From Dipteris shenzhenensis (lineage: Eukaryota): a DNA stretch of 64,000 nt. Location: assembly GCA_047967505.1 (NCBI GenBank), contig CM106538.1; one strand, written 5' to 3'. The notes under the pieces are model-generated. The model worked only from the letters and a program-made list of their open reading frames with translations. It ran no database searches and was not told where the DNA came from. This document shows, piece by piece, positions 1,707 to 60,272 of the stretch (within the stretch, counting starts at the first letter, position 1; each line of letters opens with the position of its first letter). The position numbers and the translations under genes were made by a program.

Positions 1707-1829
1707 GCTTGGTTGCACAATGGAATACATTTTCCTTGGTACACAAATATATAAATCCAAGAAACAGCGTGGTAACTTTCATAGATCTCCTCCCATAATA
1801 CATAAAAATAGGTAACGGAGCTATAACTC

Positions 1830-6880: not shown

Positions 6881-7540
6881 TACTTCTTCATGCCAAAAAA
6901 AATAGGAGGAGGAGGAGCAAAGTGCTCACCACAGAGCATCCACGGCAATGGATTGCTATGGATTTTTAAATTCTTTGGTGAAGCTTGTTTAACTCAGATT
7001 GCTGCAATATATTCTCGGGCATTTTGTGAACTGTTCTACCCCTGTCTCTCTCTCTTGAGTTTGGGTTCTATCTTGTGGAGACATAAGGCCAAAAGTTTTG
7101 AATTACAACATTCCCTGCTCCTCTCATAGGTGTTTCCATTGCACACACCTTAGCCATCTATTGTACCACGACGTGGAAAAACTAGCCACAAAGAGTAGGT
7201 TTTTTTCCAACACGTGAGTCTTGGCTGTGATCTAGCCCAGAAGTTCAAATACTGTCTGCCAGGGCTTCGCTCTCGCTTGGAGAACCGCCACCATAGTACC
7301 GAAACACCAAGCAAGGGCTCCCATGGATACTTGGAACTACCGCAATCTCATGATGGCCAAGAGTGCATACTAGAGATAGATCAATACCTTCACAGAGGCA
7401 CAGGGGCAATGGCCTTTGGGATAGGTTAGGTTCCAGAGACAGCACTCTACGCTATACCATTCTTAAAGACTAGATAATCTAATGAGGAAATTGCCTTATA
7501 CAATTTAACATCATTTAATATTTCAGCATTCTAATGAAAC

Positions 7541-9592: not shown

Positions 9593-9839
9593 CTCGGGGG
9601 GGTCACTATGTATAAACCCTCTATATCACGTGCGTTCAAGGCCTATATTTAAAGTCCCTTATCCGTAAAAAATTTCATTAATAAAATGTACCCCTTTTCT
9701 ATACAAATCTGTAAATTTTTTCCAAAATTATTTTAGATAGTCCCTTATGTATATTTATTTCTGTAAATTTTAGAAATAAAAAAAATCCTTCTGTTGAACT
9801 CACGTGATAGGGTTACATATGATGAGTGATCCCCCCGAG
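9593..9839 (+). mobile_element. MITE, CTC...GAG family, 8-bp TSD
   Basis: TIRs CTCGGGGGGGTCACT / AGTGATCCCCCCGAG; TSD TCCGCTGC at 9585-9592 and 9840-9847. Confidence 0.93.
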
Positions 9840-9889
9840 TCCGCTGCCAACTGAATTCAATGTAGCCAGCTCCTCGTTTGGGGTAGGCC

Positions 9890-11421
9890 ATGGCTAATCT
9901 CATCCAAGATTTTCAAGATATCATGCTCCAGGACGATCCACCACCACAGCTTCTGCCTCACAAACTCGAGGATCATCGCATTGAGTTAGTCCCAGGCTCT
10001 ACCCCTCCCAGTAAGTTTTTGTATCAATTGGAGGCAAAGTTAGAACAACAGCTCACTCAGTTATTACGTACTCGATTTATCCAACCATCCTTATCGCCTT
10101 TTGAGGCTCCAATTTTATTTGTCTAGAAAAAGGATAAGTCAGCACGATTATGGGTCGACTACAAGGCACTCAATAAAATTATGAGTAGCAATAAGTTTCC
10201 AATGTCCTGCATAGAGTACATCTTAAAGCGCTTGAACGGTGCAAATATTTTTCTACGATAGACCTTAAGAGCGGTTATCATCAGGTCTGAATATTTGATG
10301 CGGACATCCCAAAGACAACATTCAAGATAGAGAGAGCTCATTACAAGTTTGTGGATGTTCTCACTGGGCATATAACAATGTGCCTATTCATCATTTTAGA
10401 TGATATCTCGATCTTCTCAACCACACACTTAAAGGATGTGCGAAAAGCTCTCCAGCTTCTATGCAACAATCAATTATATTTAACTGCCAGAAAGAGTGAG
10501 TTCAAACTGATAGAAATCCTATATCTGGGTTATATCATCAATGCCAATGGCATTAGCTTGGACCTCGAAAAGGCTTAAGCAATTGCAAGCTAGACAATCC
10601 CCATGACAACTCAAGAGATTCGATCTTTTGTAGGGCTTTGTTAGGTCTACAACTCTCACATGCCCAATTTCTCCACCACATCAGCACCCTTAACAGATCT
10701 ACTAAAAGTGATTAAGACACGTAGGCAAAAGATTTCTATCAAAGCGCAGCTTTGCAAGCCTTCCACGATCTGCAGTGGTTCGCCACTACAGCTCCTATTA
10801 TGACAATAGCATCTTGAGATGATCCATTCTTGGTCATCACAAATGCAAGCAATGTGGCCATCCAGGATAGTTTTACACCAAAAAGAAAGACTTGTGGCAT
10901 ACTATAGCAGAAATCTCAATGATGCTAAAAAGAATTGCTCGGTCTAAGACAAATAACTACTCGGCATGATCTAAGCATTGAAGCACTGGAAGCCGTTCCT
11001 TCTTGGATGGACTTTCACGGTCAAAACAAACCATCAAGCCTTACAATGGCTGCAAACAAACGGCTAGCACAGAAGACGTAGCTTGCTTATTTATCAAGTA
11101 TTGGTATCCGATTGGAGGATTGCCATGGACCATTACTATGGACATGGATTCCAAATTCACCTTGCATCTCAGGAGAGAGCTCCAAATGTCCAATGCATTC
11201 GATCCACAAATTGACGGGCAATCAGAGGCATGTAATCAATTGGCATTTGACATACTAAAATATTATTGTCATGATGCTCAGTTAAAGTGGGAGTAATACA
11301 CTTGGTATCTAAAGGGGATTCCAAATTCACCTCGCATCTCTGGAGAGCCTTGTTCGAAAACTTTCATACCAAGCTCCAGATGTCCAATGCATTCCATCCA
11401 CAAATTGACAGGCAATCAAAG
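9890..11421 (+). mobile_element. Highly degenerate Ty3/gypsy pol remnant (RT, RNase H, integrase fragments)
   Basis: HRIELVPGSTPP...FIQPSLSPFEAPILFV, then DYKALNKI, IILDDISIFS, YLGYII, and GGLPWTITMDMDSKFT...PQIDGQSE. Many stops and frameshifts; no LTRs found. Confidence 0.85.
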
Positions 11422-13089
11422 GGAGGTGCACCCTGATTGGCTTCCTTAGTGTGGTGATAAGGCCCTTTACACACCTCTTCCTCCCTTCACCTCTCTCTAA
11501 TGCAACTCCATTGTATGCCTGCAGACAACAAAAGCCTCTTTAATTGCCTTGCACAGTGGTCTACATTTACCGTGTGGGCTATGACCAATGTACATCAAAA
11601 GTTTACATGTAAGTGCATGATCAGGCATGTGAATACCCAATGTGAAATATTGTAGGCATCAAAGAAACATTGCACCATTTTGTTGATAGTGCAAATAAGG
11701 TAAAAAATGTCTAGATGTGGAATTGATCTTCCTTTATTTGCAAAACTCTACAACTTTGGTGTAAGCCAGTGTTTTCAAGCATGGTCTTGCTCATGACTAC
11801 AAAATCCATCGTTGCCAATCTTTTGAACTATCATCTTGTAGGTGCTTCAATCTTTTGAAAGCCTTTCTACGCTCCTCTAAAAGATGTTGTGCCATTCTCC
11901 AATCCATGATTCCAAAACGACATGCACCACTTTGAGTAAAATCAAGCAAGATGTTGCTAGGATGCAAGTCTATGTGAAACCGTTAGGCCTGATGGGATAG
12001 TGCTAGTCTAGCCATGAGAGCATGGATAAGATGATGCAATTAGCACAAAGAAAAGTCAATTCTTTGCAGCATGTCTTTTGAGCCTTTGATTGCATCCTCT
12101 AGTTCTTCTTCTACTTGTGACACCTTCTTTGCTCCTCCCTTCACGTGTGCATCAACTAAAGGACCCTTCATTAAATGACAGCTAGAGGAAAAATTGTGAC
12201 AGGCTCCCACCATGGAATATGGTGTGATTGTCCAAGGGGGCTCTTCTAAGGTAGCAACAACAACTCTTGTGAGCACAGGGTGTGCTATTTGCATTGCCAC
12301 CTCTCTTTGTGCTTCTCATCTATATGAGCACCAACATTGCCCTATACTACTTGCCAGCATACTAGTAGTGTTGTAACAAACTGAGACAGCCTACTAGACA
12401 AACCCAATCGATGATCTCACAATTTCTTTACCTCAAAAGATCTCTTGCTCTATGATAAATGTCACAAAAATCACATTCTTATGTGACTAGGTTGCTACTT
12501 TAGCTTTTATGTGGTACATCTAAGAATGCTTCCTTTCAAGACTACATCCTGTCCTTTCTCCTCTTGCCTAGTTCGCGCCTCTACCATTCCAAACCTTAAG
12601 GCCAACTTCTTCTCCTAGCTCTCAATTCTACGGCCCTTCTAATGGAATAGTCACATAAGAAATGTGAATTTTGCAACATTTATCATAGCAAGAGATCTTG
12701 TGAAGTTTGGAGGATGTTACTTTTATGCACAACCCATAATGCATCCAATACTGCATTGACATCATTACCAAATAATGCTCTTTTAATACACATTTCCTCA
12801 AACTGTACATGTACACTACTAATTTGGGATTCAAGCCAAAGAAATGTATCAGACTTCCAATTCACCATGCTAACAAGCTCACAGGTTGGGGCATCTTGTT
12901 ATAGCATATTGTTTGTGTCATTGTATAACCTTTATCTTGAAATTACACAACCTATTAGTGCTTTCTATTATGCTCTAAAATGACTTCTTAAGCTTGGAAA
13001 CAATCAAACATGGGGTGTGATTTCTTGAGAATGGTTATGAATTGACCACCCTGTGGGATCAGAGGCCCTTGGCAAGATATTTTATTGTT

Positions 13090-13660
13090 GGGTGTGCCAA
13101 TTAGGGTGGGGCATTTTGAAATCTTTAGAAGAATTTGCCACGGATGTAGAGGGAAAGTCCACGGTGTCATTTTGATAGGCCGGAGAGCATTGGGCGACTC
13201 TCTTAGTAGGTCACTATGGCTCTCTTATTAGGCACTAAAGGAGGGGCTTGCGATGGTGGAAAGTTATCCCAAAATTGTCAAAAATCTTGTGACAAAAGGC
13301 TTGAAGACGTTTAGGGAGATTTGGGACCTGAAAATGGGAAGTGGATGCCCATGGAAAGCATTACCAGTAGATTTTTCTCTCTAGTTGGGAAACATCTCTG
13401 ATGAGAGACTTCATGGGGAGAATCAAGGAAGACTGGCCGACTAGTTGCTCTCTAAAACATACTGATGACTTCAGAGGATTTGCAATGCCTTTAGGAAAGT
13501 TGCTTTATAGGTGCTCTCCAAAAGACTTGAGACCTCCAATGTCCTTTTGGGCACTCTCAAAATTACGCATACTGTGGAAGTTGCACGCTTCGTGGAATCA
13601 CCCTCCCCCAAAAGAAACCCTACATACACGCATTGAAAAGTGAGTGATCATTGGTCTTTG
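13090..13660 (+). mobile_element. Possible degenerate LINE ORF2 fragment
   Basis: GLKTFREIWDLKMG.W.PMES-like stretch resembles the region downstream of RT in plant L1 elements; weak match. Confidence 0.3.
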
Positions 13661-14501
13661 CTCACATCTCCTTGGATCCATTCGAGTCTTGAAGGGAGCC
13701 TAAGGTTTGAGTGATTAATGTGATGCTAACATATTCCAATATTGCCCATTCCACCAATAATGGTATTGGACCCAATGTGTTTGACAAGTAAAAACACATG
13801 TTATCATGCGAGTAATGGCTAGTGGGGGTAATGAAACATTTGTGTTGCATCAAAATCATGAAAGTGACTTGCACCATAAGATGGTTGACAAATTGTAAAT
13901 ATGCAATGGGACCAACAATGGTGAATGAACATGATTACTCTTGGTGGTGGGCTGTACTAGAGATTGGGCAACCATGTGATGTTGATTGGCTATTGATGTG
14001 AAGAAACAAATACAAAGACCTTTTCCCACACCATTTGAACTTGAGTTGCAAAAGAGTCCCATTCAAGAACCCTCAAATTTAGTCAAAAGATCCACTCTCT
14101 CCTTCGTATAATACCCTTGGAAACCAATGATTTCGCTGAAGTCCCCACTCGGCTCGCCTATTATTTGAAGTTCAAACCATTGTTTTTTCACATGCCTACT
14201 TCTCACTATTGATTACTCTTTATCCAAGTTTTAACTTGGAGTCACACACCAGCCCCCTTTAAACTAGGCCTTAAACTCACACCCTAGACTAAGACATATG
14301 AATTACTATTATAAATTTGCAAATATTTCAATAACAATCCAAATAACTTATGGTCCTTCAAACTTCACATGAAAAAGTTTTTTATTTTTTAATTGCAACC
14401 CCCAAAACCTTCCAATTTTATTTTTCATTGTTTAGCAATTCTCACATGACACCCAAGACGTTCATTATATAAAAGCCCCATACAATGATGTGTGCATTGA
14501 A

Positions 14502-14712
14502 GGGGTATTTATATACCCCTTATATCGCTTATGTATATATATTTCATGTAAGTCCACAAGATTGTTGCAGAATGCATGTGCTATCAAAGATATTGCTCAG
14601 TGAAATTGGGATTTATATACCCCTTATATCCCTTATGTATATATATTTTGTGCAAGTCCACAAGATTGTTGCAGAATGCATGTGCTATCAAAGATATTGC
14701 TTAGTGAGATTG
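14502..14712. repeat. Two-copy ~104 bp tandem duplication
   Basis: ATTTATATACCCCTTATATC...AAGTCCACAAGATTGTTGCAGAATGCATGTGCTATCAAAGATATTGCT occurs twice. Confidence 0.9.
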
Positions 14713-14766
14713 AAATCCCAGTGGCAGTGGGCCCCAGTCGCACTGGGCACCCTCTCTATGTTGTAG

Positions 14767-15000
14767 ACTGGAATAGTCACTCATGATGTGTTTCCTGAAT
14801 TCCTAGTTTTGCACGCTCCACCTTTTGATCGAAGTTGCAAGAAGAGTGCAAGGAAGAAAGAAATGGTCAAGAGGGATAGAAGATGAAGTAGTGAAGGAAA
14901 TGGAATAGTGGAGGCTTGAGATTACAAGGGAGAACAAAACGTTCGAGAGGGATATAAGAGGAAACGGTTAAGGGAATGGAATAGTCAAGTAACTGTCAAG
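14767..15000 (+). other. Putative degenerate exon immediately before the satellite array
   Basis: Acceptor CTCTCTATGTTGTAG| (14766) and donor CAAG|GTGAGA (15001). The 234 bp read as a basic peptide (…KKSARKKEMVKRDRR*…YKRKRLREW…) with two TGA stops, each compatible with CGA>TGA. Confidence 0.4.
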
Positions 15001-15011
15001 GTGAGAACCAA

Positions 15012-18000
15012 TCGACTTACATGCAAAGTGGCACTCCCATCCCATAAGTGCTTGATCGGATAACATACCTTGGAGCGTGTTTTTTTACGGATGTGCATGA
15101 CACTAGAGCAAAAATAGTATTTATTGCTCGATCGATCATGCAAAGGATATCCGATGGGCACAACACTTTTCGTACACCTCAACCTAGGTGGTATTGAAAT
15201 GTTCTCAAAGAGGCACACCCATCCGATAAGTACTTGGTCAGATAACACACCTAAGGGCGTGTTTTTTTGCGGATGTGCATATCACTCGGGAAAAAATGGT
15301 GTATAATGCATGATCGACCATGGAAAGCATATCCGATGGTGACAATACTTTGCACCCACCTCAACGTAGTTGAAATAGACTTGCGTGCAAAGTGGAGCCC
15401 TCATCCGGTAAGTACTTGTTGAAATAACACGCCTAGGACCGTGTTTTTTCATGGTTATGCATGACAGTAAGGATAAAACGGTGTTTTATGCTTGATCGAC
15501 AATGCAAAGCATATCCGATGGGCACAATACTTTGCACACACCTTCAACTAGGTGGAATCAACTTACATGCAAAGTGGCATGCCCATCCCATAAGTGCTTG
15601 ATTGGATAACATACCTAGCAGCGTGTTTTTTTACGGATGTGCATGACACTAGAGCAAAAATAGTATTTAATGCTCGATCGACCATGCAAAGGATATCCGA
15701 TGGGCACAACACTTTTCATACACCTCAACCTAGGTGGTATTGAAATGTTGTCAATGAGGCACTCCCATCCGATAAGTACTTGGTCAGAAAACACACCTAA
15801 TGGCGTGTTTTTTTGTGGATGTCCATTTCACTAGGGAAAAAATGGTGTATAATGCTTGATCGACCATGCAAAGCATATCCGATGGTGACAATACTTTGCA
15901 TGCACCTCAATGTAGTTGAAACAGACTTGCGTGCAAAGTGGAGCCCCCATCCGATAAGTACTTATTTGAATAGCACACCTACGTCCATGTTTTTTGACAG
16001 TTGTACATGACACTAAGGCCAAAAACGGTGTACAATGCGTGATCGACCATGCAAATCATATCCAATGGTGAAAATACTTTGCACGCACCTTAATGTAGTT
16101 GAAACAGACTTGCGTGCAAAGTGGAGCCCCCATCCGATAAGTACTTGTTTGAATAACACACTTAGGACCGTGTTTTTTCATGGTTGTGCATGACACTAAG
16201 GGAAAAACGGTGTTTTAGGCTTGATCGACAATGCAAAGCATATCCGATGGCACAATACTTTGCACACACCTTCAACTAGGTTGAATTCACTTACATGCAA
16301 AGTGGCACGCCCATCCCCTAAGTGCTTGATCGGATAACATACCTAGCATCATGTTTTTTTACGGATGTGTATGACACTAGAGCAAAAATAGTATTTAATG
16401 CTCGATCGACCATGCAAAGGATATCTGATGGGCAAAATACTTTTCGTACACCTCAACCTAGGTGGTATTAAAATGTTCTCAATGAGGCACACCCATTCGA
16501 TAAGTATTTGGTAAAATAACACACCTAATCGCGTGTTTTTTTGCGGATGTGCATACCACTAGGGAAAAAACGGTGTATAATGCGTGATCGACCATGCAAA
16601 TCATCTCCGATGGTGAGAGTACTTTGCACACACCTCAACGTAGTTGAAACGGACTTGCGTGAAAAGTGGAGCCCCCATCCGATAAGTACTTGTTTGAATA
16701 ACACACCTAGGACCGTGTTTCTTCATGGTTGTGCATGACACTAAGGCAAAAACGGTGTTTTATGCTTGATCGACAATGCAAAGCATATCCGATGGGCACA
16801 ATACTTTGCACACACCTTTAAATAGGTGGAATTGACTTACATGCAAAGTGGCACACCCATCCCATAAGTGCTTGATCGGATAACATACCTAGCAGCGTGT
16901 TTTTTTACGGATGTGCATGACACTATAGCAAAAATAGTATTTAATGGTCGATCGACCATGCAAAGGATATCCGATGGGCACAATATTTTTTGTACACCTC
17001 AACCTAGGTAGAATTGAAATGTTCTCAAAGAGGCACACCCATCCGATAAGTAATTGGTCAGATAACACACCTAAGGGTGTGTTTTTTTGCGGATGTGCAT
17101 ATCACTAGGGAAAAAATGGTGTATAATGCGTGATCGACCATGTAAAGCATATCCGATGGTGACAATAATTTGCAAGTACCTCAACATAGTTAAAATGGAC
17201 TTGCATACAAAGTGGAGCCCCCATCCGATAAGTACTAGTTTGAATAACAGACCTAGGACCGTGTTTTTTCATGATTGTGTATGACACTAAGGCAAGAACG
17301 GTGTTTTATGCTTGATCGACAATGCAAAGCATATCCGATGGGCACAATACTTTGCACACACCTTTAACTAGGTGGAATTGACTTACATGCAAAGTGGCAC
17401 GCCCATCCCATAAGTGCTTGATCAGATAACATACCTAGCAGCGTGTTTTTTTACGGATGTGCATGACACTAGAGCAAAAATAGTATTTAATGCTCGATCG
17501 ACCATGCAAAGGATATTCGATGGGCACAACACTTTTCGTACATGTCAACCTAGGTGGTATTGAAATGTTCTCAATGAGGCACACCCATCCGATAAGTACT
17601 TGGTTAGATAACAAACCTAATGGCGTGTTTTTTTGCGGATGTCCATATCACTAGGGAAAAAATGGTGTATAATGCGTGATGAACCATGCAAAGCATATCC
17701 GATGGTGACAATACTTTGCACGCACCTCAACATAGTTTAAAAGGATTTGCGTGCAAAGTAGAGCCCCCGTCCGTCGATAAGTACTTATTTGAATAACACA
17801 CCTACAGCCGTGTTTTTATATGGTTGTGCATGACACTAAGGCAAAAACGGTGTTTTATGCTTGATCGACAATGCAAAGCATATCTGATGGGCACAATACT
17901 TTGCACACACCTTCAACTAGGTGGAATTGACTTACATGCAAAGTGGCACGCCCATCGCATAAGTGCTCGATCGGATAACACACCTAGCAGCGTGTTTTTT

Positions 18001-21000
18001 TACAGATGTGCATGACACTAGAGCAAAAATAGTATTTAATGCTCGATCACCTAGGTTAAGGTGTACGAAAAGTATTGTGCCCATCGGATATGCTTTGCAT
18101 GGTCGATCGAGCATTAAATACTATTTTTGCTCTAGTGTCATGCACATCCATAAAAAAACACGCTGCTAGGTGTGTTATCTGATCAAGCACTTATGCGATG
18201 GGGGTGCCACTTTGCATGTAAGTCAATTCCTTCTAGTTGAAGGTGTGTGCAAAGTATTGTGCCCATCGGATATGCTTTTCATTTTCGATCAAGCATAAAA
18301 CACCGTTTTTGCCTTAATGTCATGCACAACCATATAAAAACACGGCCGTAGGTGTGTTATTCAAATAAGTACTTATCCGATGGGGGCTCTACTTTGCACA
18401 CACATCTTTTTCAACTACGTTGAGGTGCGTGCAAAGTATTGTCACCATCGGATATGCTTTGCATGGTCGATCATGCATTATACACCATTTTTTCCCTAGT
18501 GATATGGACATCTGCAAAAAAACACGCCATTAGGTGTGTTATCTGACCAAGTACTTATCGGATGGGTGTGCCTCTTTGAGAACATTTCAATACCACCTAG
18601 GTTGATGTGTACGAAAAGTGTTGTGCCCATCGGATATCCTTTGCAAGGTGGATCGAGCATTAAATACTATTTTTGCTCTAGTGTCATGCACATCCGTAAA
18701 AAAACACGCTGCTAGGTATGTTATCCGATCAAGCACTTATGGGATGGGTGTGCCACTTTGCATGTAAGTCAATTCCACCTAGTTAAAGGTGTGTGCAAAG
18801 TATTGTGCCCATCGGATCTGGTTTGCATTGTTGATCAAGCATAAAACACCGTTTTTGCCTTAGTGTCATGCACAACCATGAAAAAACACGGTCCTAGGTG
18901 TGTTATTCAAACAAGTACTTATCGGCTCGGGGCTCCACTTTGCACGCATGTCTGTTTTAACTACGTTGAGGTCTGTGCAAAGTATTGTCACCATCGGATA
19001 TGATTTGCATGGTCGATCACGCATTATACACCGTTTTTTCCCTAGTGGTATGCACATCCGCAAAAAAAAACGCACCTTAACTAGTTGAAACGGACATGCG
19101 TGCAAAGTGGAGCCCCCATATGATAAGTACTTGTTTGAATAACACACCTAGGACCATGTTTTTTCATGGTTGTGCATGACACTAAGGAAAAAATGGTGTT
19201 TTATGCTTGATCGACAATGCAAAGCATATTCGATGGGCACAATACTTTGCACACACCTTTAACTAGGTGGAATTGACTTACATGCAAAGTGGCACGCCCA
19301 TCCCATAAGTGCTTGATCGGATAACATACCTAGCAGCGTAATTTTATACGAATGTGCATGACACTAGAGCAAAAATAGTATTTAATGCTCGATCGACCAT
19401 GCAAAGGATATCCGATGGGCACAACACTTTTCCTACACGTCAACCTAGGTGGTATTGAAATGTTCTCAAAGAGGCACACCCATCCGATAAGTACTTGGTC
19501 AGATAACACACCTAATGGCGTGTTTTTTTGCGAATGTCCATATCACTAGGGAAAAAATGGTATATAATGCGTGATCGACCATGCAAAGCATATCCGATGG
19601 TGACAATACTTTCCACACACCTCAACATAGTTGAAATGGACTTGCGTGCAAAGTGGAGCCCCCATCCGATAATTACTTATTTGAATAACACAGCTACGGC
19701 CGTGTTTTTATATGGTTGTGCATGACACAAAGGCAAAAACAGTGTTTTATGCTTGATCGACAATGCAAAGCATATCTGATGGGCACAATACTTTGCACAC
19801 ACCTAAACGTAGTTGAAACAGACTTGCGTGCAAAGTGGAGCCCCCATCCGATATGTACTTATTTGAATAACACACCTAGGGCCGTGTTTTTATATGGTTG
19901 TGCATGATACAAAGGCAAAAACGGTGTTTTATGCTTGATCGACAATGCAAAGCATATCCGATGGGCACAACACTTTTCCTACACAACCTAGGTGGTATTG
20001 AAATGTTCTCAAAGAGGCACACCCATCCGATAAGTACTTGGTCAGATAACACACCTAATGGCGTGTTTTTTTGCGGATGTCCATATCACTAGGGAAAAAA
20101 TGGTGTATAATGCGTGATCGACCATGCAAAGCATATCCGATGGTGACAATACTTTGCACACACCTCAACGTAGTTGAAACGGACTTGCGTGCAAAGTGGA
20201 GCCCCCATCCGATATGTTTTTATTTGAATAACACAGCTACAGCCGTGTTTTTATATGGTTGTGCATGACACAAAGGCAAAAACGGTGTTTTATGCTTGAT
20301 CGACAATGCAAAGCATATCCGATGGGCACAATACTTTGCACACACCTTCAACTAGGTGGAATTGACTTACATGCAAAGTGGCATTCCCATCGCATAAGTA
20401 CTTGATTGGATAACACACCTAGCAGCGTGTTTTTTTATGGATGTGCATGACACTAAGGCAAAAATGGTATTTAATGCTCGATGGACCATGCAAAGCATAT
20501 CCGATGGGCAAAATACTTTTCCTACACCTTAACCTAGGTGGTATTGAAATGTTCTCAAAGAGCACACCCATCCGATAAGTACTTGGTCAGATAACATACC
20601 TAAGGGCATGTTTTTTTGCGGATGTGCATATCACTACGGGAAAAACGTTGTATAATGCGTAATCGACCATGCAGAGCATATCCGATGGTGACAATACTAG
20701 TTGAAATGGACTTGCGTGCAAACTGGAGCCCCCATCTGATTAGTACTTGTTTGATTAACACACTTAGGACTGTGTTTTTTCATGGTTGTGCATGACACAA
20801 AGGCAAAAACGGTGTTTTATGCTTGATCAACAATGCAAAGCATATCCGATGGGCACAATACTTTGCACACACGTTCAACTAGGTGGAATCGACTTCCATG
20901 CAAAGTGGCACGCCCATCCCATAAGTGCTTGATCGGATAACATACCTAGCAGCGTGTTTTTTTACAGATGTGCATGACACTAGAGCAAAAATAGTATTTA

Positions 21001-24000
21001 ATGCTCGATCGACCATGCACATGTTTTTTTGCGGATGTGCATATCACTATGGGAAAAACGTTGTATAATGCGTAATTGACCATGCAGAGCATATCCGATG
21101 GTGACAATACTTTGCACGCATCTCAAGCTAGTTGAAACGGACTTGCGTGCAAACTGGAGCCCCCATCCGATAAGTACTTGTTTGATTAACACACTTAGGA
21201 CCGTGTTTTTTCATGGTTGTGCATGACACTAAGGCAAAAACGGTGTTTTATGCTTGATCGACAATGCAAAGCATATCCGATGGGCACAATACTTTGCACA
21301 CACCTTCAACTAGGTGGAATTGAATTACATGCAAAGTGGCACACCCATCCCATAAGTGCTTGATCGGATAACATACCTAGCAGCATGTTTTTTTTACGGA
21401 TGTGCATGACACTAGAGTAAAAATAGTATTTAATGCTCGATCGACCATGCAAAGGATATCTGATTGGCAAAATACTTTTCCTACACCACAACCTAGGTGG
21501 TATTGAAATGTTCTCAAAGAGGCACACCCATCTGATAAGTACTTGGTCAGATAACACACCTAAGGGCGTGTTTTTTTGCGGATGTGCATACCACTAGGGA
21601 AAAAACGGTGTATAATGCGTGATCGACCATGCAAATCATCTCCGATGGTGAGAGTACTTTGCACACACCTCAACGTAGTTGAAACGGACTTGCGTGAAAA
21701 GTGGAGCCCCCATCCGATAAGTACTTGTTTGAATAACACACCTAGGACCGTGTTTCTTCATGGTTGTGCATGACACTAAGGCAAAAACGGTGTTTTATGC
21801 TTGATCGACAATGCAAAGCATATCCAATGGGCACAATACTTTGCACACACCTTTAAATAGGTGGAATTGACTTACATGCAAAGTGGCACGCCCATCCCAT
21901 AAGTGCTTGATCGGATAACATACCTAGCAGCGTGTTTTTTTACGGATGTGCATGACACTATAGCAAAAATAGTATTTAATGCTCGATCGACCATGCAAAG
22001 GATATCCGATGGGCACAACACTTTCGTACACCTCAACCTAGGTGGTATTGAAATGTTCTCAATGAGGCACACCCATCTGATAAGTACTTGGTCAGATAAC
22101 ACACCTAATGGCGTGTTTTTTTGCGGATGTCCATATCACTAGGGAAAAAATGGTGTATAATGCGTGATCGACCATGCAAAGCATATCCGATGGTGACAAT
22201 ACTTTTCATGCACCTCAACGTAGTTGAAACGGACTTGCGTGCAAAGTGGAGCCCCCATCCGATAAGTACTTATTTGAATAACACACCTACGGCCGTGTTT
22301 TTATATGGTTGTGCATGACACAAAGGCAAAAACAGTGTTTTATGCTTGATCGACTATGCAAAGCATATCCGATGGGCACAATACTTTGTACACACCTTCA
22401 ACTAGGTGGATTTGACTTACATGCAAGGTGGCATTCCCATCGCATAAGTACTTGATCAGATAACACACCTAGCAGCGTGTTTTTTACGGATGTGTATGAC
22501 ACTAAGGTAAAAATGGTATTTAATGCTCGATCGACCATGCAAAGCATATCCGATGCGCACAATACTTTTCCTACAGCTTAACCTAGGTGGTATTGAAATG
22601 TTCTCAAAGAGGCACACCCATCCGATAAGTACTTGGTCAGATAACATACCTAAGGGCATGTTTTTTTGTCGATGTGCATATCACTATGGGAAAAACGTTG
22701 TATAATGCGTAATCGACCGTGCAGAGCATATCCGATGGTGACAATACTTTGCACGCATCTCAACCTAGTTGAAACGGACTTGCGTGCAAACTGGAGCCCC
22801 CATCCGATAAGTACTTGTTTGATTAACACACTTAGGACCGTGTTTCTTCATGGTTGTGCATGAAACTAAGGTAAAAATGGTATTTTATGCTTGATCGACA
22901 ATGCAAAGCATATCCGATGGGCACAATACTTTGCACATAGCTTCAACTAGGTGGAATTGCCTTACATGCAAAGTGGCACTCCCATCCCATAAGTTCTTGA
23001 TCGGACAACATACCTAGCAGCGTGTTTTTTTACGGATGTGCATGACACTAGAGCAAAAATAGTATTTATTGCTCGATCGATCATGCAAAGGATATCCGAT
23101 GGGCACAACACTTTTTGTATGCCTCAACCTAGGTGGTATTGAAATGTTCTCAAAGAGGCACACCCATCCGATAAGTACTTGGTCAGATAACACACCTAAG
23201 GGCGTGTTTTTTTGTGGATATGCACATCACTAGAGAAAAAATGGTTTATAAGCCGTGATCGACCATGCAAAGCATATCCGATGGTGACAATACTTTGCAC
23301 ACACCTCAAACTATGTAGTTGAAAGGGACTTGCATGCAAAGTGGAGCCCCCATCCGATAAGTACTTGTTTGAATAACACACCTAGGACTGTGTTTTTTCA
23401 TGTTTGTGCATGACACTAAGGCAAAAACAGTGTTTTATGCTTGATCCAAAATGCAAAGCATATCCGATGGGCACAATACTTTACACACACCTTCAACCAG
23501 GTGGAATTGACTTACATGCAAAGTGGCATTCCCATCGCATAAGTACTTGATCGGATAACACACCTAGTAGCATGTTTTTTTTACGGATGTGCATGACACG
23601 AGCAAAAATAGTATTTAATGCTCGATTGACCATGCAAAGCATATCCGATGGGAACAATACTTTTCCTACGCCTTAACCTAGGTGGTATTGAAATTTTGTC
23701 AAAGAGGCACACCCATCCGCTGATAAGTAGTACTTGGTTAGATAATACCTAAGGGCGTGTTTTTTTGCAGATGTGCATATCACTATGGGAAGAACGTTGT
23801 ATAATGCGTAATCGACCATGGAGAGCATATTCGATGGTGACAATACTTTGCACACATCTCAACCTAGTTGAAACGGACTTGCGTGAAAAGTGGAGCCCCC
23901 ATCCAATAAGTACTTGTTTGATTAACACACTTAGGACCGTGTTTTTTCATGGTTGTGCATGACACTAAGGCAAAAACGGTGTTTTATGCTTGATCGACAA

Positions 24001-24235
24001 TGCAAAGCATATCCGATGGGCACAATACTTTGCACACACCTTCAACTAGGTGGAATTGACTTACATGCAAAGTGGCACACCCATCCCATAAGTGCTTGAT
24101 TGGATACATACCTAGCAGGCTCGTGTTTTTTTATGGATGTACATGACACTAGAGCAAAAATAGTATTTAATGCTCGATCGACCATGCAAAGGATAACTTG
24201 GTATGTCCATCTGATGAGTACTTGATCGGATAACT
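15012..24235. repeat. Satellite array: ~182 bp monomers in an A-B-C higher-order repeat (~546 bp), about 50 monomers
   Basis: Three monomer types are marked by GTGCAAAGTGGAGCCC, ATGCAAAGTGGCAC and CTCAAAGAGGCACACCC and alternate with ~182 bp spacing. Occasional chimeric or deleted monomers occur (e.g. ~16113, ~19828, ~21019). Confidence 0.98.
18049..19073 (-). repeat. Inverted block inside the satellite array
   Basis: Reverse-complement monomers (e.g. CCCATCGGATATGCTTTGCATGGTCGATCGAGCATT) lie between forward arrays; junctions at ~18048 and ~19073. Confidence 0.95.
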
Positions 24236-24330
24236 TCTGCCACCAATAAATTAAGTACTAACTCAATATTATTATAAATGAGTAGATTATTAAAAAGAGA
24301 CTAATATTTATGTAATTGTTGCTACTGCAG

Positions 24331-27300
24331 CTTGCTTGCGAAGGTCTCTCACAAAGGAGATGGCTATAGATTTTTTTCCAGGGATGGATGTGATTTTATG
24401 TAGCAAAAGAGTAGTTGCATTTGCTACAATCCATGATAGTGATCCCAATTCAGTTTGCCACTTTCGAAGACTTGGCGAAGATAAGGTGGCAGTTACTGTA
24501 TCAAAGATTCTTAGCGCACATGTTGAGCTAAAGTATAAATGTGGAGATATGGAAACACTTGGAGATGTTATGCCCTACAATACATCCAACAAATCATTTA
24601 TAGCATGCAACAGACATTATCAAGAATACAAAGTGCACCACCTTGGATTTTACTATAGGGGACATTTTACAAATGAGATCATTTGCAAATAAGACTGTAG
24701 CAGAAGGTGAAGTATTGGGATTTGAACAAGTGGAGCAATGGTCATTTGCACAGATGAGGATTCTAAAAGTCACTGATGATGGTATGGTTGATAACATAAC
24801 ATCATTTTGTGATCCCTACTATGAGGTAGGCAAGAATATGAGATGGAGCATGCAATTTTTAAACATGAGAAAGAGGCACGTGGTTTTCAATGATAAAGAC
24901 AAGGTATACTACAATATCAAAGGACCTAAAAAGCGTGCCCATGTGCCAGGCTCTATCACTTCAAATGTGGATGATTTCAATATACTCAATTATAGAAGTG
25001 ACATCTTATCTGGAGTGGATGAGTTCATTGGTTCCGAGAAACAAAATGATTTTAGAAGCGAAGCCTTATCTGGGGTGGATGAATTCTTGCACAGTGAGAA
25101 GGGCAAAGGTTTCAATAGTGATGTCTTGTCAAGTGTGGATGAGTTCATGCATATTAACAAACCTGGTGTCAATCAAGCTTGTGGATTTGTGACAGCCATG
25201 CAAGATGTCCCAATGAGTGATGTTCTCTCAGGAGTGGAAGAGTTTCAAGGTTCTCAATACTCTCGTAGAATATTGAATTCATTGAATGGTCCTAAGAGTA
25301 TGTTAAAAATGAGGATGAGATCAACAGAGGATTATTCAATATTTAACTTTGATTGTGATATGGACAAGGATGCAACGACCAATCATGGATGCTTGGTTAC
25401 AAACAAATGTGAGGAGAAGAAGTGCATGAATACAGATAACAACGTGCACGAGGAACGAAAACGGTCATACATATGCATGAAGAGAAAGTGAATCCAGGCA
25501 GATCCACAAAAGCAACCAAAGAGGAAGAGAGTAATGAAGGAGGAGAACATGTTAAATGCATTGGGATATCTATGTTGCAAGCGAAGATGTATGCACTTCA
25601 TTGATCCTGCAGACATCAGGGAATGTAGAGGACACGTGTGGCAAAGAAGAGAAAGCAAAAGAAATGAATACCTTCTCAAAAGTCTCTCTTGCTTTCTTCA
25701 GTATGGCAATAAAAGGCTAAGTTCAAGGCAAAAGGTAAAACCTCTCGTAAATGGAAAAAGGATTTGCAATAAGGCATATCACAATATTACTGGATTATCC
25801 CATAGTACATATTGGGATTTAGTCAGCAAGGCAAAGGGCGGCAACAAATTTAGCATTCACGGTAATAGAGGAAGGTCCAAATCAAGAATCTCAACTGTCA
25901 GGGCAGTAGCAATTTTGCAAGACTTCATACATGAAAATGCTTTACCTCAACCCCATATATCTACCAAACTCCCTAACGGTGATGCGATCACTGAAATGCA
26001 CCTTCCAATGGGCTTGACAAAGCTCGAAGTATTTGACTCTATTGCAGAAAAGCAAAGGCAAAGAGGGGATGCCGTAGCTTCTTCTCATACTTTGTATACT
26101 CTTTGGAAGAAGAACTTTGGATATGTTAAAATCCAAAGGAGGCAAAAAATGTCAAAGTGCAATGTCTGTGATGATTTAAAGCGAGCGATTGAGAGTGCAA
26201 CATGTCCAAATCAAAGGGAATTATACAAAAAAAACCAAAAATCTCATCATGACCTTATTCGACATTCTAGACAAAAATATGCATTTTGGAAGGAGCAAGC
26301 TATTTCGCATCCCGATGACTACATGTGCCTTATTGTAGATGGCATGGATCAGAATACAACAACATTGCCTCGTTTTGTTGCCACTCCACCTAAATTACAA
26401 GAAAGCACTTTCTAAAGACACATCTATGTGGAGTGTTAGTGCATGGAATTAAGTTCTTTGCAGATATATGGATTGATTCCTTGCATCTACATGATAGCAA
26501 TCAAGTTGTAACATCTATTATGAAGGCAATTCGCAATGTACATGCAGAAAAAGATCGCCTACCACCGACTTTGAGAATACAAGCTGATAATTGCTGGCGA
26601 GAAAATAAGAATGTACTCATGTTTGCATTCTGCTCCATGCTAGTTGCTCATCGAATCTTCAATGAGGTCGAATGTGGATTTTTGTATGTTGGGCATACAC
26701 ATGAGGATATCGATCCGGTTTTTAGCACAGTCTCAAGGGAGCTTAAATGCAAGGATGTGGAGACAATAGATGACTTGGTAAGAAGATGTGGTAGGCAAGT
26801 TGGTGGTCATAAGGAAAGTATAGTATGTGAGAGGCTCGAAAGAATGTATGATTGGAAGAGCTTCATTCTACCTTTCATACAAACAGGTGGTGATGCATTG
26901 ACAGGTCATACCAATCCACACTACTTTCATTTTTTTTAAAAAGATGAAAAACCCGTAATGCAATGGCAACAGTATTCTCATGATACAAAATGGGAACCTG
27001 AAGAACCTTACAGTCTCTTAACTTCAATTCCCAGCAAGGAAAGGTATCCAACATGGGCTCCTATACAAGAATTCAATGAGAGGTCTAACTGTGAAATAGA
27101 AGGATTAAAAGCATTTATTACATACAAAGAGGAAATGCTCCGGAGATATCCTGATTCGAAGCCTACTTGGAGAGAACACACTACCACTGTAATTAACAAG
27201 ACACGAAATTTAATAAAGGACCTTGAGAGAATGCGAGGCTCAAAGGATTTCAAGGAAGAATGCAATATGTTTTGGCCAAATGTTCATAACGATTTGCGCC

Positions 27301-27806
27301 CAGCTCCAGTCTTTGAAAATGAATTTGTATCATTACTCCCACGTCCATATTGTGGACCGAAGAAGAAAGAGTTTATGCCACAAGTAGATATAGAGGTCGA
27401 TTGTTTTGTTGTGGTTCGGCCATCGGATGATGAATATGAGAATGCGAAGTTTTGGGTTGCAAAAGTAGTTGATGTGCAAAGAGATGACCAAGGGAGAGCT
27501 ACAACATTTATAGCGGTATGGTATGAGCCAAAGGGCAGGAAGGAGAATATGGATAACAACACATTGTATACTAATTGTATAATGAAGGAGTGGGTCCCAA
27601 ATGATGAAGCGGTCTCTCAAGTTTTGACGGAGACAATCATAGTGTCTTGGCATTCAAGGGCAAAGAAATCAAAGAAGTGCATGGGATATGAGGTAGAAGG
27701 AAAAATAAAAATACCACAGCAAACTATTTTGCATATACACGAATTTTTAAGGATGCTCGCCATGGAGGAAGTAGAAGGAGATAGCGCAAATGAAGAATAT
27801 CCATGA
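24331..27806 (+). pseudogene. Sola1/DUF7869-like DDE transposase with N-terminal Tnp1/En-Spm-like domains (about 1150 aa if repaired)
   Basis: ORFs 24336, 24643, 25534, 26433 and 26958 are joined by two frameshifts (~24608, ~26412) and two nonsense codons (25489, 26937). Motifs: CCKRRC, KCNVCD, LIVDGMDQ, LRIQADNCWRENKN, VGHTHEDIDPVFS, DWKSF. Acceptor ACTGCAG| at 24330. Confidence 0.85.
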
Positions 27807-30800
27807 TTAAAGCTTTGTATTGAAGTCCATTGAAGGATTTTATTTGGGTACTAGGCAAGAAGCCAATCCAAGACAATTATAATCAGAGTCATCACCTCCT
27901 ATGTCAAATGAGAGTCAAAATATGCACTGGATGTCACCCAAGGGTCAAGGCTTGCCAAGACAATAGGGAGTTAATGCAGATGGCACTTGGCAAGGGACTA
28001 TCACATTGAGCAATAAGACAATGGGGAGTCAATGCACCCAAGGGGCAAGGCTTGGCAAGATAACTTGTGGGAGTTAATGCAGATGGCACCTGTATTTTGC
28101 ACTGGATGTCACCCAAGGGTCAAGGCTTGGCAAGACAATAGGGAGTTAATGTAGATGGCACCTGGCAAGGGACTATCGCATTGAGCAATAAGACAATGGG
28201 GAGTCAATGCACCCAAGGGGCAAGGCTTGGCAAGACAAGTGGGAGTCAAATTATGCACATGGCACCTGGCAAGGGACTATCGTGACATTGAGCAATAAGA
28301 CAATGGGGAGTCAAATTATGCAGATGGCATGAATTGAGGCTCTTTAAGAGCAACAATTTAAATTGTAACATATGTTCAATATAAAGACTCTAGCTGAGAG
28401 CAACGTCTCTCAATGTAATCATATAATAATAGCTATAATTGCTATCATACCTCTTTGGTTCAATACAAAACTTGGGTCTTATGGCATCATGTCTTTTTTC
28501 TATTTATTAAAAGTTTTAAAAATTTTGTGCATATTGCGAGTGACAATGTTATTTTCATGAAATATTTAAGTCTCCTTTCATGGATTTATAAATTTATCAC
28601 GTCAAGGAAAAATATTAAAAATAATTAAATTAACAAATAACTTAGATATAGCTAGAATTTCTAATATAGGATTATTTCAAATTCTTGCATGTTGGTGCAA
28701 AAGTATAGATTGAAAAAACAATATTTTTATGTGAATATGATAGTGCCACAAAGTGAACTTTTGATATGGGAAGAATATTTTCAGAAAGTAAAATTTTGAT
28801 TTGGGAAGGATATTTTCACAAAGTAAAGTTTTCATTTGGGAAGGATTTTTGGGCTTCGTCCAAAAACAACACAAAAGTTCCAAAATTAATGAAATAGGTG
28901 TTAAAAGAAGGACTACAATTTCCTTGGTTTATGACCAAAATAGTGCTAAAATAACTCCAACGATCCCACCATTGTGGTTGCATGGAGATACATCTAGAAA
29001 AATACAATTAAAATTTCAAAAAATGCAATTGATGATATGGCCCTTGAGGGGTCCCCTCAACATGCCATTTTATCCCGTCACATCCTAGATATTGTATAAT
29101 GCACATAGGTATGGCCCTCGCCCCTAAAGGGGACCCCTCAAGAGCCATATCATCAATTGCATTTTGCTTGGTTGCACAATGGAATACATTTTCCTTGGTA
29201 CACAAATATATAAATCCAAGAAACAGCGTGGTAACTTTCATAGATCTCCTCCCATAATACATAAAAATAGGTAACGGAGCTATAACTCCAAGAACTAGCG
29301 TAGTGATCTCTCTAAGACAACCTTGAATTCTGGGCAATGACAGGTGGTCATGCCAGAGACTATGCTGAGATGATGCTCAGAATGATAGATTGTGTCCCAT
29401 TATTACGCAAAAAACTAGCATGGTGGTCTCTCTAAGGCAACTTATGATTTGCATGGGCTGCAAGCAAAGAAGCGGCAAAAGGCTACATGATGACAGGTGG
29501 TCAGAGAGACTATGCTACGGCAATGATAGATTTCATCTAATTACTATGGCAAGAACTAGCATGGTGGTCTCTCTAAGCCAATCTTCAATTTTAATGATCT
29601 TCATGGGTGTGTGCCCAGTGACAGGTGGCAAAGTTGCAACAAAAGGCTGTGCGACAATAAATGATATGGTGGCATAGGCCAGAGACTACATTGCGCGAAG
29701 AAGTGTAGAGATGCCATGTGTCGAGCTATGCGGTGTTCTGAACAAATAGATTGCATTCATTATTATGCCAGTGTGCCTTCATGACGTTGGGAAATCTTTT
29801 TTCGAGAGCGCGGGTCCATGCAAAATTCAAATATTCACCTAGAAGCGCATCGCATCGCAGCCCCAAAATGGCCTCGAAAATAGTTTCACGATTGGCTACA
29901 CCCAAGCTAACGTTGACCCTTGTACCTACATACTTATAAATTTTTTGAAAGAAGGGACAGAGCAATATGTCTTTTGTTTTATTGATTAAGTACCCATGAG
30001 AGGATGAACAACTACCTTGTTCAATGGGAGCTTGTTGAGATTCTCTTGATACATGCTGTAACAAACATTCACATTTTGTATATGTCACATGTACAAGCCT
30101 TGAAGAAGCCAATATTTTTTTGAATGCTAAGGATATCTATAGGAATTTCCCAAAGAAGCAAGAAGATTATTAGCACTAAGTCCAATGCTAAAGGATTATG
30201 CGCGCATAGGCATCAAGATGAACTAGATATTTTTAAGTATGTAAATCATACAAAGACATGTCAAAGGGTCGAATAGACCCAAAATGACCTATTAGGCTTA
30301 ATGAGAGCCTTTCAACTATGATAGGGCTAATAATACTAGCCTTAATGACCTATTAGGCTTAATGAGAGACTTTCAGCAATGCGTGGCTAATAATACTAGA
30401 CCTAGAAAGGGCTAGATATGAACATTAAAGAAGGGTTAGGACAAAAAGGAGGTAAGAACCACCAATTAGTGGTGGTATTAATAAGAGGATGTCAACAATC
30501 ACCCATTAGGTATTCAAAATCACATATGAATGATTTGCTATTAAAGTGGAAACTTCTAAGACCTAGTAGTTGGTATCAACTACTAAAAAAGGGGAGGGGT
30601 GCTACATGCATGGTTCCATAACTATATCTTAAAGTACACATGGATTTCATATGCAAGTCTTGACCATGGGTCAAGGTTACTATAATTCAAATTGGATCAG
30701 GTGCCTTAAGTTCATTGAACTGCCAATATGAGCACCATGAAATGGTAGGATAAGAGGTGTATTGATATGAACCACGATTTTCTAGGCTACGAGGTATATT

Positions 30801-32377
30801 GATATACCCTAGTATGTACCATGATATGGTACATACAAGGGTGTATGAATATGTACCATGACCATGATATGATAGGCCAAAAGGAATATTGATATACCCT
30901 TTAAATTTTCTCTATTCTAGAAATAGATAGATAGCAAGAAGAGTGATATCTAAGATTTGTAAGCCTCATCGGTGTCTCTGAGACATGGCTACAATTTTTT
31001 ACAAAGTCTCGTAGGCCCCTTTCCTAACATGCTATGAGGCCATAGGGGAGGAAGTTATACCACTAAGTATTACTAAATAGGGTTAGAATTACATGCACAC
31101 CTAGTCTTAATTGTAGGAAATTCAAAGTTGAATGACAACTGCCCACAACTCTTAAAGGAAAACCAAGATCATAGACTCAGGGGGGTCACTATATATAAAC
31201 TCTCTATATCACGTGCATTCAATGGTTATTTGTAAAATCCCTTATGCATAGATTTTTCATTAATAAAATGTACCCTTTTTCTATACAAATCTATAATTTT
31301 TTTCTAAAATCATTTTAAATAATCCCTTATGTAAGTTAAATTCTATAAATTTTAGAAATTAAAAATATCCTTTTGTTGAACTCACATGATAGGGTTACAT
31401 AAGATGAGTGACCCCCTCGAGATCATAGACATGACACTTTCCAAGGTTGAAATCTACCTTGCCACACTTGAGGGCAAGCCTGACCCCAATGTTCAAGCAT
31501 ACAAAATTGACAATAAAGTACTAGCCAAGTCAAGGAGAAAATCCAAGCCGCCAAGGAGGAATTTATCAAAGCTAAATAAGGTATGACAAGTGAAGTTGTT
31601 TCTTGAGAGGATGATTATTGTTAATCTTTGTCATGCTATACATTTGGGTTGGTAGCTTGGCCAAATGATGGCATCAAGGTAATGCAATTAAGCCCAAATA
31701 CATTGAAGTTGAAGAGTACATTAGTGAGGTGGAGCCAGAGCCCCTCCTCCCCTCATCTTGAAATCATGACATATGGGAGCTCCTGTCTCGCTATTCAAAA
31801 GCCCGATTTGGATGCTCTCTAAAACTTCACCAGGATGGTGCAGGAGGTGAACGTGAAGGAGGGGCAACTAGTCTGTTAAGGTCACAAGATTACCATCAAT
31901 GAAAGCGTGATTGAAAAGGCTCTAGGAATTTCTGGAGGCACTACGCCAGCACACTTTTTTCAAAAGCAATGGAAAAGACATGATATTCTAGATGTATACC
32001 CCAATGCTTAGATTAGTAAAGATGGTGGAGTCAAGATTTTGAGCTTTTGCCAACACATCTCCAAGTTGTACTGAAGAAGACAATTCACTTCTTTCTTGAT
32101 ACGAGAGGAACCTGCAAGTTCTCGCAGGTTCAAGCGACAGTAGAGCAACTGAAAGGACGTGATGTATCTTTCTCAAGGGCGATCTCCAAGAGCATGTTAA
32201 CCAACCTAAATATTTGCATGAATGGAAAATCCCAATTGTCATCTTAGTCTGCTGGATTTGGAATGCACTTGATGGCATCCACCCTCAAAGGGATTTTTGA
32301 GCAATACGAGAAGCTAATGTCTTAGCACTCATGCAGCAAAGGTAGCGCAACTTGAGAAAAGTCTCATGGAAGGTGTA
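27460..32377. repeat. Segmental duplication, copy 2
   Basis: Near-identical to 1-4918. Confidence 0.97.
31176..31421 (+). mobile_element. MITE, CTC...GAG family (duplicated copy of 3717-3962)
   Basis: Same TIRs and the same ATCATAGA TSD, so the insertion predates the duplication. Confidence 0.93.
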
Positions 32378-33498
32378 GAAGCCAAGGTAGAGGAGGCACA
32401 AGCAAGGGCCTTATAGGCACAAGAGCAAGCTGAGGCCACCACAAAATTGGTCCACATGGAAAGGCATAGAAGAGAAGATGCAGAGAAGTGCATGAAGGAC
32501 GTCCGAGATAGGCTCGAAGAAGTGAGAAATGACAAGGACATGGCAGACAAGGAGCTAGAAAAGATGCAAAAGGACCTTGAAGATCAGAGAGCCAAAAAGG
32601 AGAGTCTTTACAAATGGCTCTGCAACATGCAAAACTCATTGAACATTTAAAAAAACGAGATGATGGAGGAGCTGAAAAGGGAGAATGCAAAACAAGAAAG
32701 GTGATGTAGGAACTGTGAGAGAGCTTCAAGGCCAGGAAGGATGGGGCAGAGAGCAGCCGGGGTGAAGAAGACAATGAGGCAGCTCCCCTGGCTAGCAAGG
32801 ATGCAGAGAGTAGCCAACACAATGGAGCAAGTTCCAATCAACACAGTGGAGAAATTTGCAGTAGCCACGGTGAGGGTTGTTTTTATGAAACATTGTTGGA
32901 AGTCCAAAGAGCAACCTACAATACCGTGCAAGAAGATCACGATAGATGTTTGCACAAGCTTGGTGTGGCTTTCAACACTTATGAAATGCAGTTCATTGCC
33001 CTACGAGATTTCCAAACTAGAGTGGAAGTCTTGGAAACTGCCCATGAAGAAGTTTTTTAGGAATTTACGAAAGTTCAACAGATGCTAAGGGATTTTGATG
33101 CAGTTGTTGCACAGAGTGAGCAAAAAGTGGAGGAGATGGAGAACATCCGCAGCCTTAGGATAAGGAAGGAAGAAATCAAGAAGCAACTTCATCATGTACA
33201 AAGCAAGACTATGGTATCGCCGATCGCAAGAGTTAAATCGGATGCCTATCCTACTATGCAACAGGGTCTGAAATGTATGGTCTGCCATACCCCCATCATA
33301 GATGATTGCTGTATCCGATGGCCTGCATGCTACCACCCTGTGCACGTTTTTTGCTTTGGAATGTGGGTGCATACAAAATTGCTATGTAGAGAATGCCATT
33401 TCCCAGATCATGGACAAATCAAATGTGCTAGTCGAGCCTGCAACCAGGAAGCTCAAATCAAGGAAAGAGGAAGTGGCATGAAGGGAAGGAGTCTTTGA
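31629..33498 (+). pseudogene. Degenerate gene with long coiled-coil and C-terminal RING-H2 finger, probably TE-borne
   Basis: EK-rich helical fragments (ERHRREDAEKCMKDVRDRLEE…) and CMVC…ACYHPVHVFC…W…CREC (C3H2C3 spacing). Several stops and frameshifts. Start uncertain. Confidence 0.65.
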
Positions 33499-60242: not shown

Positions 60243-60272
60243 GGACGTAAACAATTCTTAAGGGGAAGGGAA

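Follow-up and report, generated by a model that had tools for sequence, protein, structure and literature searches.

The question raised by a 64-kb stretch of the Dipteris shenzhenensis genome (64,000 nucleotides of contig CM106538.1, GenBank assembly GCA_047967505.1; hereafter, the window) is how a 9.2-kb array of nucleosome-length satellite repeats relates to the long transposase-like gene that follows it. The array could belong to the gene itself, to a mobile element that carries both, or only to the place where the gene happens to reside. A previous sequence-only reading put the array into an apparent intron of the transposase gene of a DNA transposon, whose transposase could have been kept expressible. 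The analysis described here makes a different picture rather likely, namely, a non-coding array with a higher-order repeat lying beside a single-exon, dead gene of the DUF7869 family, with no intron, where array and gene are linked across the family and may be carried by the element. All coordinates are those of the window, and features are on the plus strand unless noted otherwise.

The satellite array and the adjoining gene

The array is recognized by Tandem Repeats Finder (TRF) at positions 15010 to 24195, with 182-bp periods and 74 to 76% matches. A profile hidden Markov model (HMM) of the monomer, made from 16 monomers and searched with nhmmer against the whole window, finds 52 strong copies of ~181 bp each between positions 15011 and 24196, which gives an array of 9.2 kb. 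Together with 15 weak echoes on the reverse strand, all within the strong copies, this makes a total of 67 matches, and there is no match elsewhere in the 64 kb. An identity matrix and clustering separate the monomers into three types with 16, 17, and 19 copies, whose members share identities of 0.90 to 0.92 within a type and 0.74 to 0.77 between types. The mean identity of monomers is 0.89 at lag 3 versus 0.76 at lags 1 and 2, and the order B-A-C recurs, forming a three-monomer higher-order repeat of 546 bp. Autocorrelation peaks at 546 bp, too, and in the first block additionally at 1820 bp. The region from 15011 to 24196 is a satellite with a higher-order repeat, its monomer types recurring at a fixed multi-monomer period; this part of the sequence-only reading is borne out by TRF, the HMM matches, and the lag-3 identity.

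Within the array, a block of ~5.6 monomers (18048 to 19077) is inverted, as indicated by minus-strand nhmmer matches and a reverse-complement TRF consensus; it has an autocorrelation of 0.91 at lag 546. The right edge of the array is a last degenerate monomer fragment at 24200 to 24234, which matches model positions 21 to 55 at a relaxed nhmmer threshold (E value of 2.4e-4), and the array ends ~125 to 165 bp upstream of an ATG at 24360. On the left, positions 14994 to 15010 can be aligned by eye with the monomer tail (...TCAAC.TAGGTGG) and appear to be the degenerate tail of a truncated monomer. In an Rfam search over 14400 to 16200, the best row is a chance microRNA match (E value of 0.99).

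Inside some monomers, two weakly matching inverted arms are found (TGCAAAGT...CCCATC.GATA), for example at 16656 to 16684 and 16786 to 16814. This internal repeat is present in two of the three monomers tested, with arms of 22 to 29 nt that are 72 to 73% complementary and lie 101 nt apart, and it is also reflected in the 15 weak reverse-strand HMM matches. The fold z-score of the monomer DNA is -1.2, indicating a weak dyad symmetry, and the idea of a hairpin was dropped. The monomer unit may have originated from an old inverted dimer or a MITE-like element (where MITE stands for miniature inverted-repeat transposable element). The window also contains a 184-bp tandem repeat at 7539 to 8336 (4.3 copies, 90% matches), with direct repeats at 7367 to 7538 and 8353 to 8520 on either side; neither self-BLAST nor the monomer HMM shows any similarity between this repeat and the 182-bp satellite.

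The 3' side of the array is followed by pieces of open frame at 24294 to 24692, 24604 to 25491, 25492 to 26415, 26394 to 26939, and 26940 to 27806. According to the list of open reading frames (ORFs) and tblastn searches, these pieces make up a single-exon gene similar to transposases with an Asp-Asp-Glu (DDE) active site, which extends from 24360 to 27806 and is a pseudogene here. Among the downstream frames, only the segment from 26394 to 26936 matches Pfam, where it is assigned to DUF7869 (Pfam ID PF25273; E value of 1.2e-51); the long transposase-like frame that had been noted after the array is indeed present. The homologs P0002, P0003, P0004, P0005, P0006, and P0010 align colinearly in tblastn over 25396 to 27782, without intron-like gaps, and the alignment continues through a TGA at 25489, a change of frame near 26400, and a TAA at 26937. 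A protein search with 25492 to 26415 for near-length relatives gave a single match, P0001. The N-terminal part, encoded by 24604 to 25488, contains four short peptide repeats of the form S.(A/V)LSGV(D/E)EF...S that are not seen in the aligned homologs.

The ATG at 24360 is the first one after an in-frame stop codon at 24291 to 24293. From this ATG to the stop at 27806, the gene comprises ~1150 codons, slightly more than its homologs: a search for longer proteins yielded 41 relatives, and eight of these are single ORFs of 1053 to 1070 amino acids. Because the gene starting at ATG 24360 is already that long, no N-terminal exon appears to be missing, and by these alignments the gene is predicted to be a single-exon one with a complete 5' end. 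Between the array and the ATG lies a unique 125-bp spacer (24235 to 24359), which is bridged by contigs from other copies (see below) and contains a TATAAAT at 24273 as well as the claimed branch and acceptor motifs. TATA-like sites occur 40 times in the 64 kb (0.62 per kb), with one of them in the spacer, 87 bp before the ATG. The spacer probably represents the promoter and 5' untranslated region (UTR) of the gene. On the other side, the 3' non-coding part (27807 to 28877), which by contig depth is multi-copy in public runs, contains two copies of a 100-bp repeat (28110 to 28314) and three copies of a 35-bp repeat (28747 to 28850), as detected by TRF.

Judged by its reading frame, the gene is a pseudogene in the window, where four disabling lesions interrupt it. 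Two of them are deletions, of 20 bp after 24604 and of 1 bp after 26400, both visible in comparison with contigs of other copies and the latter also in tblastn. The other two, found by tblastn, are stop codons, TGA at 25489 to 25491 and TAA at 26937 to 26939. The frameshift near 26400 falls inside the sequence LPRF...FLKTHLCG, and the TAA aligns to a residue within the conserved block PH..RF.M. With four such lesions, the suggestion that the transposase has been kept expressible does not apply to the window copy.

Intron, neighbor, or part of a mobile element

The proposed intron would join an upstream exon at 14767 to 15000 to position 24331. All the strings on which this proposal was built are present: AAG|GTGAGA at 14998 to 15006, a branch-like ACTAAT at 24300, and ...TGCTACTGCAG| with its AG ending at 24330. 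However, the "donor" sits in the degenerate monomer tail described above. The array contains 39 AGGTR sites, and AGGTG is present in most monomers; the AGGTG of the "donor" at 14999 precedes that of the next monomer (15186) by 187 bp, an approximate register only. Acceptor-like sites, defined as at least 8 pyrimidines out of 12 followed by N and then YAG, occur 276 times in the window (4.3 per kb), and branch-like CTRAY sites occur 142 times. The 234-bp segment that had been called exon-like is a low-complexity sequence with 66% purines, is interrupted by stop codons in each of the six frames, and shows no Pfam or Rfam match in its vicinity; it is best described as a purine-rich non-coding flank. 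The splice phases of this segment and of the downstream frame disagree, so that the caveat attached to the sequence-only reading holds. Homologs align in tblastn from 25396 onward only, with no alignment upstream of the array.

Since the upstream segment is closed in six frames, the phases are mismatched, and the gene from ATG 24360 already has the length of its homologs, an intron of the transposase gene is not supported by the sequence. A splice from an exon at 14767 to 15000 into the coding frame at 24331, for which nothing speaks apart from the GT...AG strings and the ACTAAT resembling a branch site, is accordingly hard to credit at all: besides the closed exon and the mismatched phases, it has to contend with the in-frame stop upstream of the ATG, and the single-ORF homologs of 1053 to 1070 residues make an extra N-terminal exon superfluous. 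Improbable as well, if less starkly so, is a 9.3-kb intron in the 5' UTR, with a transcription start upstream of 15000, splicing from 15001 to 24330, and translation from ATG 24360. Such an intron would have a good donor match at 14998 to 15006, one of only seven AGGTRAG sites in the whole window, a pyrimidine-rich CAG 30 nt ahead of the ATG, and TATA-like motifs at 14466 to 14468, upstream of the supposed exon. These are, however, sequence strings only; the donor belongs to a monomer tail, acceptor-like sites are common, and the TATAAAT at 24273 may offer a simpler promoter.

Whether the array and the gene belong together can be judged from other copies of the family. Contigs of four public DNA runs were compared with the 8.4-kb segment from 24100 to 32500; contig depth, which is used in what follows, is a rough and poor measure of abundance. 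This segment is matched by 146 contigs from run X1 and 73 contigs from run X2, with identities from 88 to 100%. In X1, 33 contigs are at least 99% identical to the window, 64 fall between 95 and 99%, 40 between 90 and 95%, and 9 below 90%. The DUF7869 gene family is dispersed and multi-copy. From the bin at 28596 to 28876 to the one at 28877 to 29157, depth drops from 47.8 to 2.3 in X1 and from 16.4 to 3.1 in X2, and the 3' end of the family is probably near 28.6 to 28.9 kb, just past the three 35-bp repeats. In X1 and X2, no contigs cover parts of the region from 28.9 to 31.1 kb, although such holes prove nothing.

These contigs also bear on the lesions. X1 contigs have C, not T, at 25489, a change that is not found in X2, whereas the extra G after 26400 and the 20 extra bases after 24604 are found in contigs of both runs. 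By frame arithmetic, the 20 bases bring ATG 24360 into one frame with the open sequence that starts at 24604. Three of the four lesions are thus places where the dominant contigs depart from the window, and these contigs would read as a single uninterrupted frame from ATG 24360; for the TAA at 26937, there is no differing copy among the contig rows listed.

The right junction of the array recurs in other copies. Record 1 of X1 spans 24145 to 24436, running from the satellite into the gene with 11 mismatches and 3 gaps at a depth of 24.9, and record 9 of X2 spans 24180 to 24429 at a depth of 11.6; for comparison, the gene has a depth of 44 to 61 in X1 and 8 to 13 in X2. The bridging contigs have 9 to 11 mismatches, or ~95 to 96% identity. 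Because contigs of other copies bridge this junction, the satellite is linked to a multi-copy family, and the observations support a junction that belongs to the family and not to the window locus alone. The earlier connection of a transposon with the satellite survives in this form, while the placement of the array in an intron does not. The satellite itself is found in contigs of runs X1, X2, and X3. By rough arithmetic, the depth of same-type monomers is ~10 to 37 times the gene depth (bin 24100 to 24380), and since this ratio resembles the 16 to 19 monomers per type in the window array, the satellite does not appear to be vastly more abundant than the element, as far as so poor a measure as contig depth can tell.

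Relatives from metagenomes show a comparable layout in some cases. Pattern searches of metagenome contigs gave 598 matches, 437 of which encode relatives, and 80 loci were kept. Tandem repeats with a period of at least 40 and at least 2.5 copies were found in 11 of the 80 loci, with the repeat located upstream of the ORF in 8 of the 11. Two near-duplicate loci that encode a distant relative, L076 (6730 to 7322) and L077 (6423 to 7015), contain 8 to 10 copies of 56- to 59-bp repeats, with ~75 bp left between the last repeat and the open frame. In locus L003, the upstream repeat unit includes a 23- to 24-nt motif that is found again, inverted, downstream of the ORF. The upstream repeats in these relatives echo the layout of the window, which is only suggestive. 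A 20-mer present in 22 of the 52 monomers has no matches in the metagenome contigs.

The preferred reading of these data, which we hold with a confidence close to evenly balanced, is that the array is carried inside a mobile unit. The element would have tandem repeats located 5' of its transposase gene, and either unequal exchange or slippage during replication would have enlarged this region to the 9.2-kb array of three-monomer higher-order repeats, with one inversion taking place later within the array. The gene would be driven from its own short upstream spacer, the location of the promoter and 5' UTR there being inferred. A further step, which can be offered only tentatively, is that the element represents a family of autonomous DDE transposons from a superfamily not yet described, in which a higher-order satellite of several kilobases separates the 5' end from the transposase start codon.

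Several observations weigh against an array carried by the element. Searches found no terminal or subterminal inverted repeats between the left side (4919 to 15010 and 24197 to 24360) and the right side (28300 to 29400 and 31700 to 32420), and the monomer HMM and consensus, at relaxed thresholds, have no match in 12000 to 15010 or 27800 to 29500. The junction evidence covers the right side of the array only, and the bridging contigs, whose rows come from part of the contigs, could stem from a few loci. The count of tandem repeats in the metagenome relatives lacks a control set. For the N-terminal segment at 24360 to 24689, the best match to the homolog profile is a stretch that had also been picked by eye, and it is not significant (hhalign probability of 0.33, E value of 0.19). 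In addition, a segmental duplication also copies this region: in self-BLAST, the segment from 27460 to 32377, which includes the 3' end of the gene and 4.6 kb downstream of it, repeats positions 1 to 4918 with 99.78% identity, and this 4.9-kb duplication reaches 3.5 kb beyond the point where the family appears to end on its 3' side. The C terminus of the homologs also matches 30 to 323 in tblastn, and by this sequence match, a second copy of the gene must lie just left of the window. The similarity between the duplicates breaks off sharply behind ...GGAAGGTGTA, a point that lacks an inverted repeat. Inverted-repeat searches of the final 720 bp of this duplicated segment and of each flank alone gave chance-level matches only. 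The 35-bp 3' repeat, allowing up to 3 mismatches, has six matches in the window, all on the plus strand in the two 3' copies, with no inverted partner.

The extent of the duplication past the family's apparent 3' end, the lack of inverted termini joining the two sides, and the 35-bp repeat without an inverted partner would also be understandable if the array and the gene were neighbors, that is, if a DUF7869 element had landed by a satellite, or had lost its 5' end to one, and the block had then been segmentally duplicated. We regard this explanation as rather unlikely. In both runs, the depth of the gene exceeds that of the 3' flank several-fold, and the gene is covered by many diverged contigs (88 to 99% identity), as expected of a dispersed family and not of one recent duplication. 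Further, the junction depth in X2 is close to the gene depth, and in relatives, the ORF is often preceded by tandem repeats. Should the tentative reading of an autonomous family that carries the array hold, each transposition would plant a ready-made ~9-kb array of nucleosome-length repeats. The element would then be a vehicle for satellite spread, perhaps seeding heterochromatin or centromere-like chromatin.

DUF7869 as a putative DDE transposase domain

DUF7869 proteins occur in animals, diatoms, and metagenomes. The term DUF7869 is found in no paper of the literature searched, and the family has no described function. Compared with 41 database proteins, the window protein is 46 to 64% identical to 27 of them across the domain and 36 to 65% identical to the rest over shorter spans. 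All 15 aligned homologs match DUF7869 only, and Pfam assigns no named superfamily. In the alignment of these 15 homologs, D505/D508, D587, and E626 are invariant. In the window, the second Asp is found in the motif RIQADN and the Glu in GHTHEDID, both within the DUF7869 domain, and the first Asp (LIVDGMDQ) is located just upstream of the domain, in another frame.

The AlphaFold model of the homolog P0005 has a mean pLDDT (predicted local distance difference test score) of 53.8, with ~60 to 89 in the core. The core of the model shows the order strand-strand-strand-helix-strand-helix-strand-helix, as in RNase H-like domains, and its acidic residues are located on the strand at 499 to 507, after the strand at 581 to 586, and at the start of the helix at 626 to 641. 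Comparison by VIA-align of the model with the core of HIV-1 integrase (8w09_A) gives a Z score of 8.8 and a root mean square deviation of 2.9 Å over 131 residues. The Z scores for the Mos1 core (2f7t), IstA, and Sleeping Beauty are 8.0, 7.9, and 7.3, respectively, where the top score is commonly 7 to 8 even for models that match nothing clearly. Foldseek finds no match at an E value of 0.001 or below, and its weak list is rich in integrases, transposases, and PIWI domains; a sequence profile search of PDB returns only chance rows of the ribosomal protein L38e. An RNase H-like fold of the DUF7869 core is moderately supported by the model, and the conserved acidic triad appears to be a stronger argument for a DDE nature than the fold. 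On these grounds, DUF7869 is assigned here to the DDE transposases, with a putative catalytic triad.

Window context and known satellite-bearing transposons

The window contains several other repetitive features. On the minus strand, 45304 to 48397 harbors remnants of a CACTA-type transposase, with matches to Transposase_21 (E value of 2.2e-48) and DUF4218 (E value of 4.1e-24). A Ty3/chromovirus-type long terminal repeat retrotransposon at 54316 to 60623 (plus strand) matches gag, protease, reverse transcriptase, integrase SH3, and chromodomain families and is bounded by direct repeats at 54316 to 54658 and 60273 to 60623 that are 87% identical. A dispersed repeat of ~247 bp is found at 3717 to 3962, 9593 to 9839, 31176 to 31421, and 43333 to 43575, with 86 to 91% identity and one copy inverted; its depth in X1 is 209, as expected of a MITE-like element. 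A CT-rich low-complexity block at 50289 to 52122 has a GC skew of -0.46 and includes 326-bp and 185-bp tandem units with embedded GCATAA/TATGCT microsatellites.

That transposons and satellites can be linked is well documented, and most cases involve short arrays in non-autonomous elements. A close parallel to the window is the CACTA-like element Jozin of Chenopodium quinoa, in which a captured satellite DNA array with a 171-bp monomer is located near the 3' end (PMC8978399). As far as the portion of that report used here describes it, Jozin likewise moves by cut and paste, bears a transposase, and has a satellite-type array inside or near one end, and its satellite is dispersed along with the element. 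According to the same portion, Jozin differs in encoding Transposase_21, whereas the window element encodes DUF7869, and in having its array near the 3' end, whereas that of the window lies 5' of the gene. The termini of Jozin are seen, whereas none were found for the window element; as described there, the Jozin array is also unlike that of the window, which measures 9.2 kb and has a trimeric higher-order repeat.

Another precedent, in the part of the source drawn upon, is the foldback transposon Tetris of Drosophila virilis, whose internal tandem repeats are a source of satellites (PMC4079207). On that partial account, the general route from transposable element to satellite is common to Tetris and the window case. 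Tetris is said to have long inverted termini made of its repeats. The window differs from it in that the 3' side has no monomer copy and a long transposase gene adjoins the array.

More generally, tandem repeats in mobile elements vary in copy number and may grow into classical satellite arrays, with cases described for MITEs and Helitrons in the section used here of a 2025 review (PMC12628747). The MITEs with tandem repeats and the Helentrons that occur in bivalves and Xenopus, as covered by the relevant parts of two further reports, belong to the same category (PMC7492417, PMC3879986). The weak internal inverted repeat of the window monomer has a MITE-like appearance. However, the elements described in those parts are short and non-autonomous and contain few monomers, whereas the window has ~52 monomers beside a full-length transposase-like gene.

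Without the intron, what remains is a moderately interesting association of a familiar kind. If the array and the gene move as a unit, they would clearly exemplify how a transposon disperses a satellite that is already mature and would provide the first functional context for DUF7869. Satellite-bearing transposons are already known, and the distinct features of this one are the uncharacterized family, the long trimeric array, and its location, with the start codon following directly on its 3' side.

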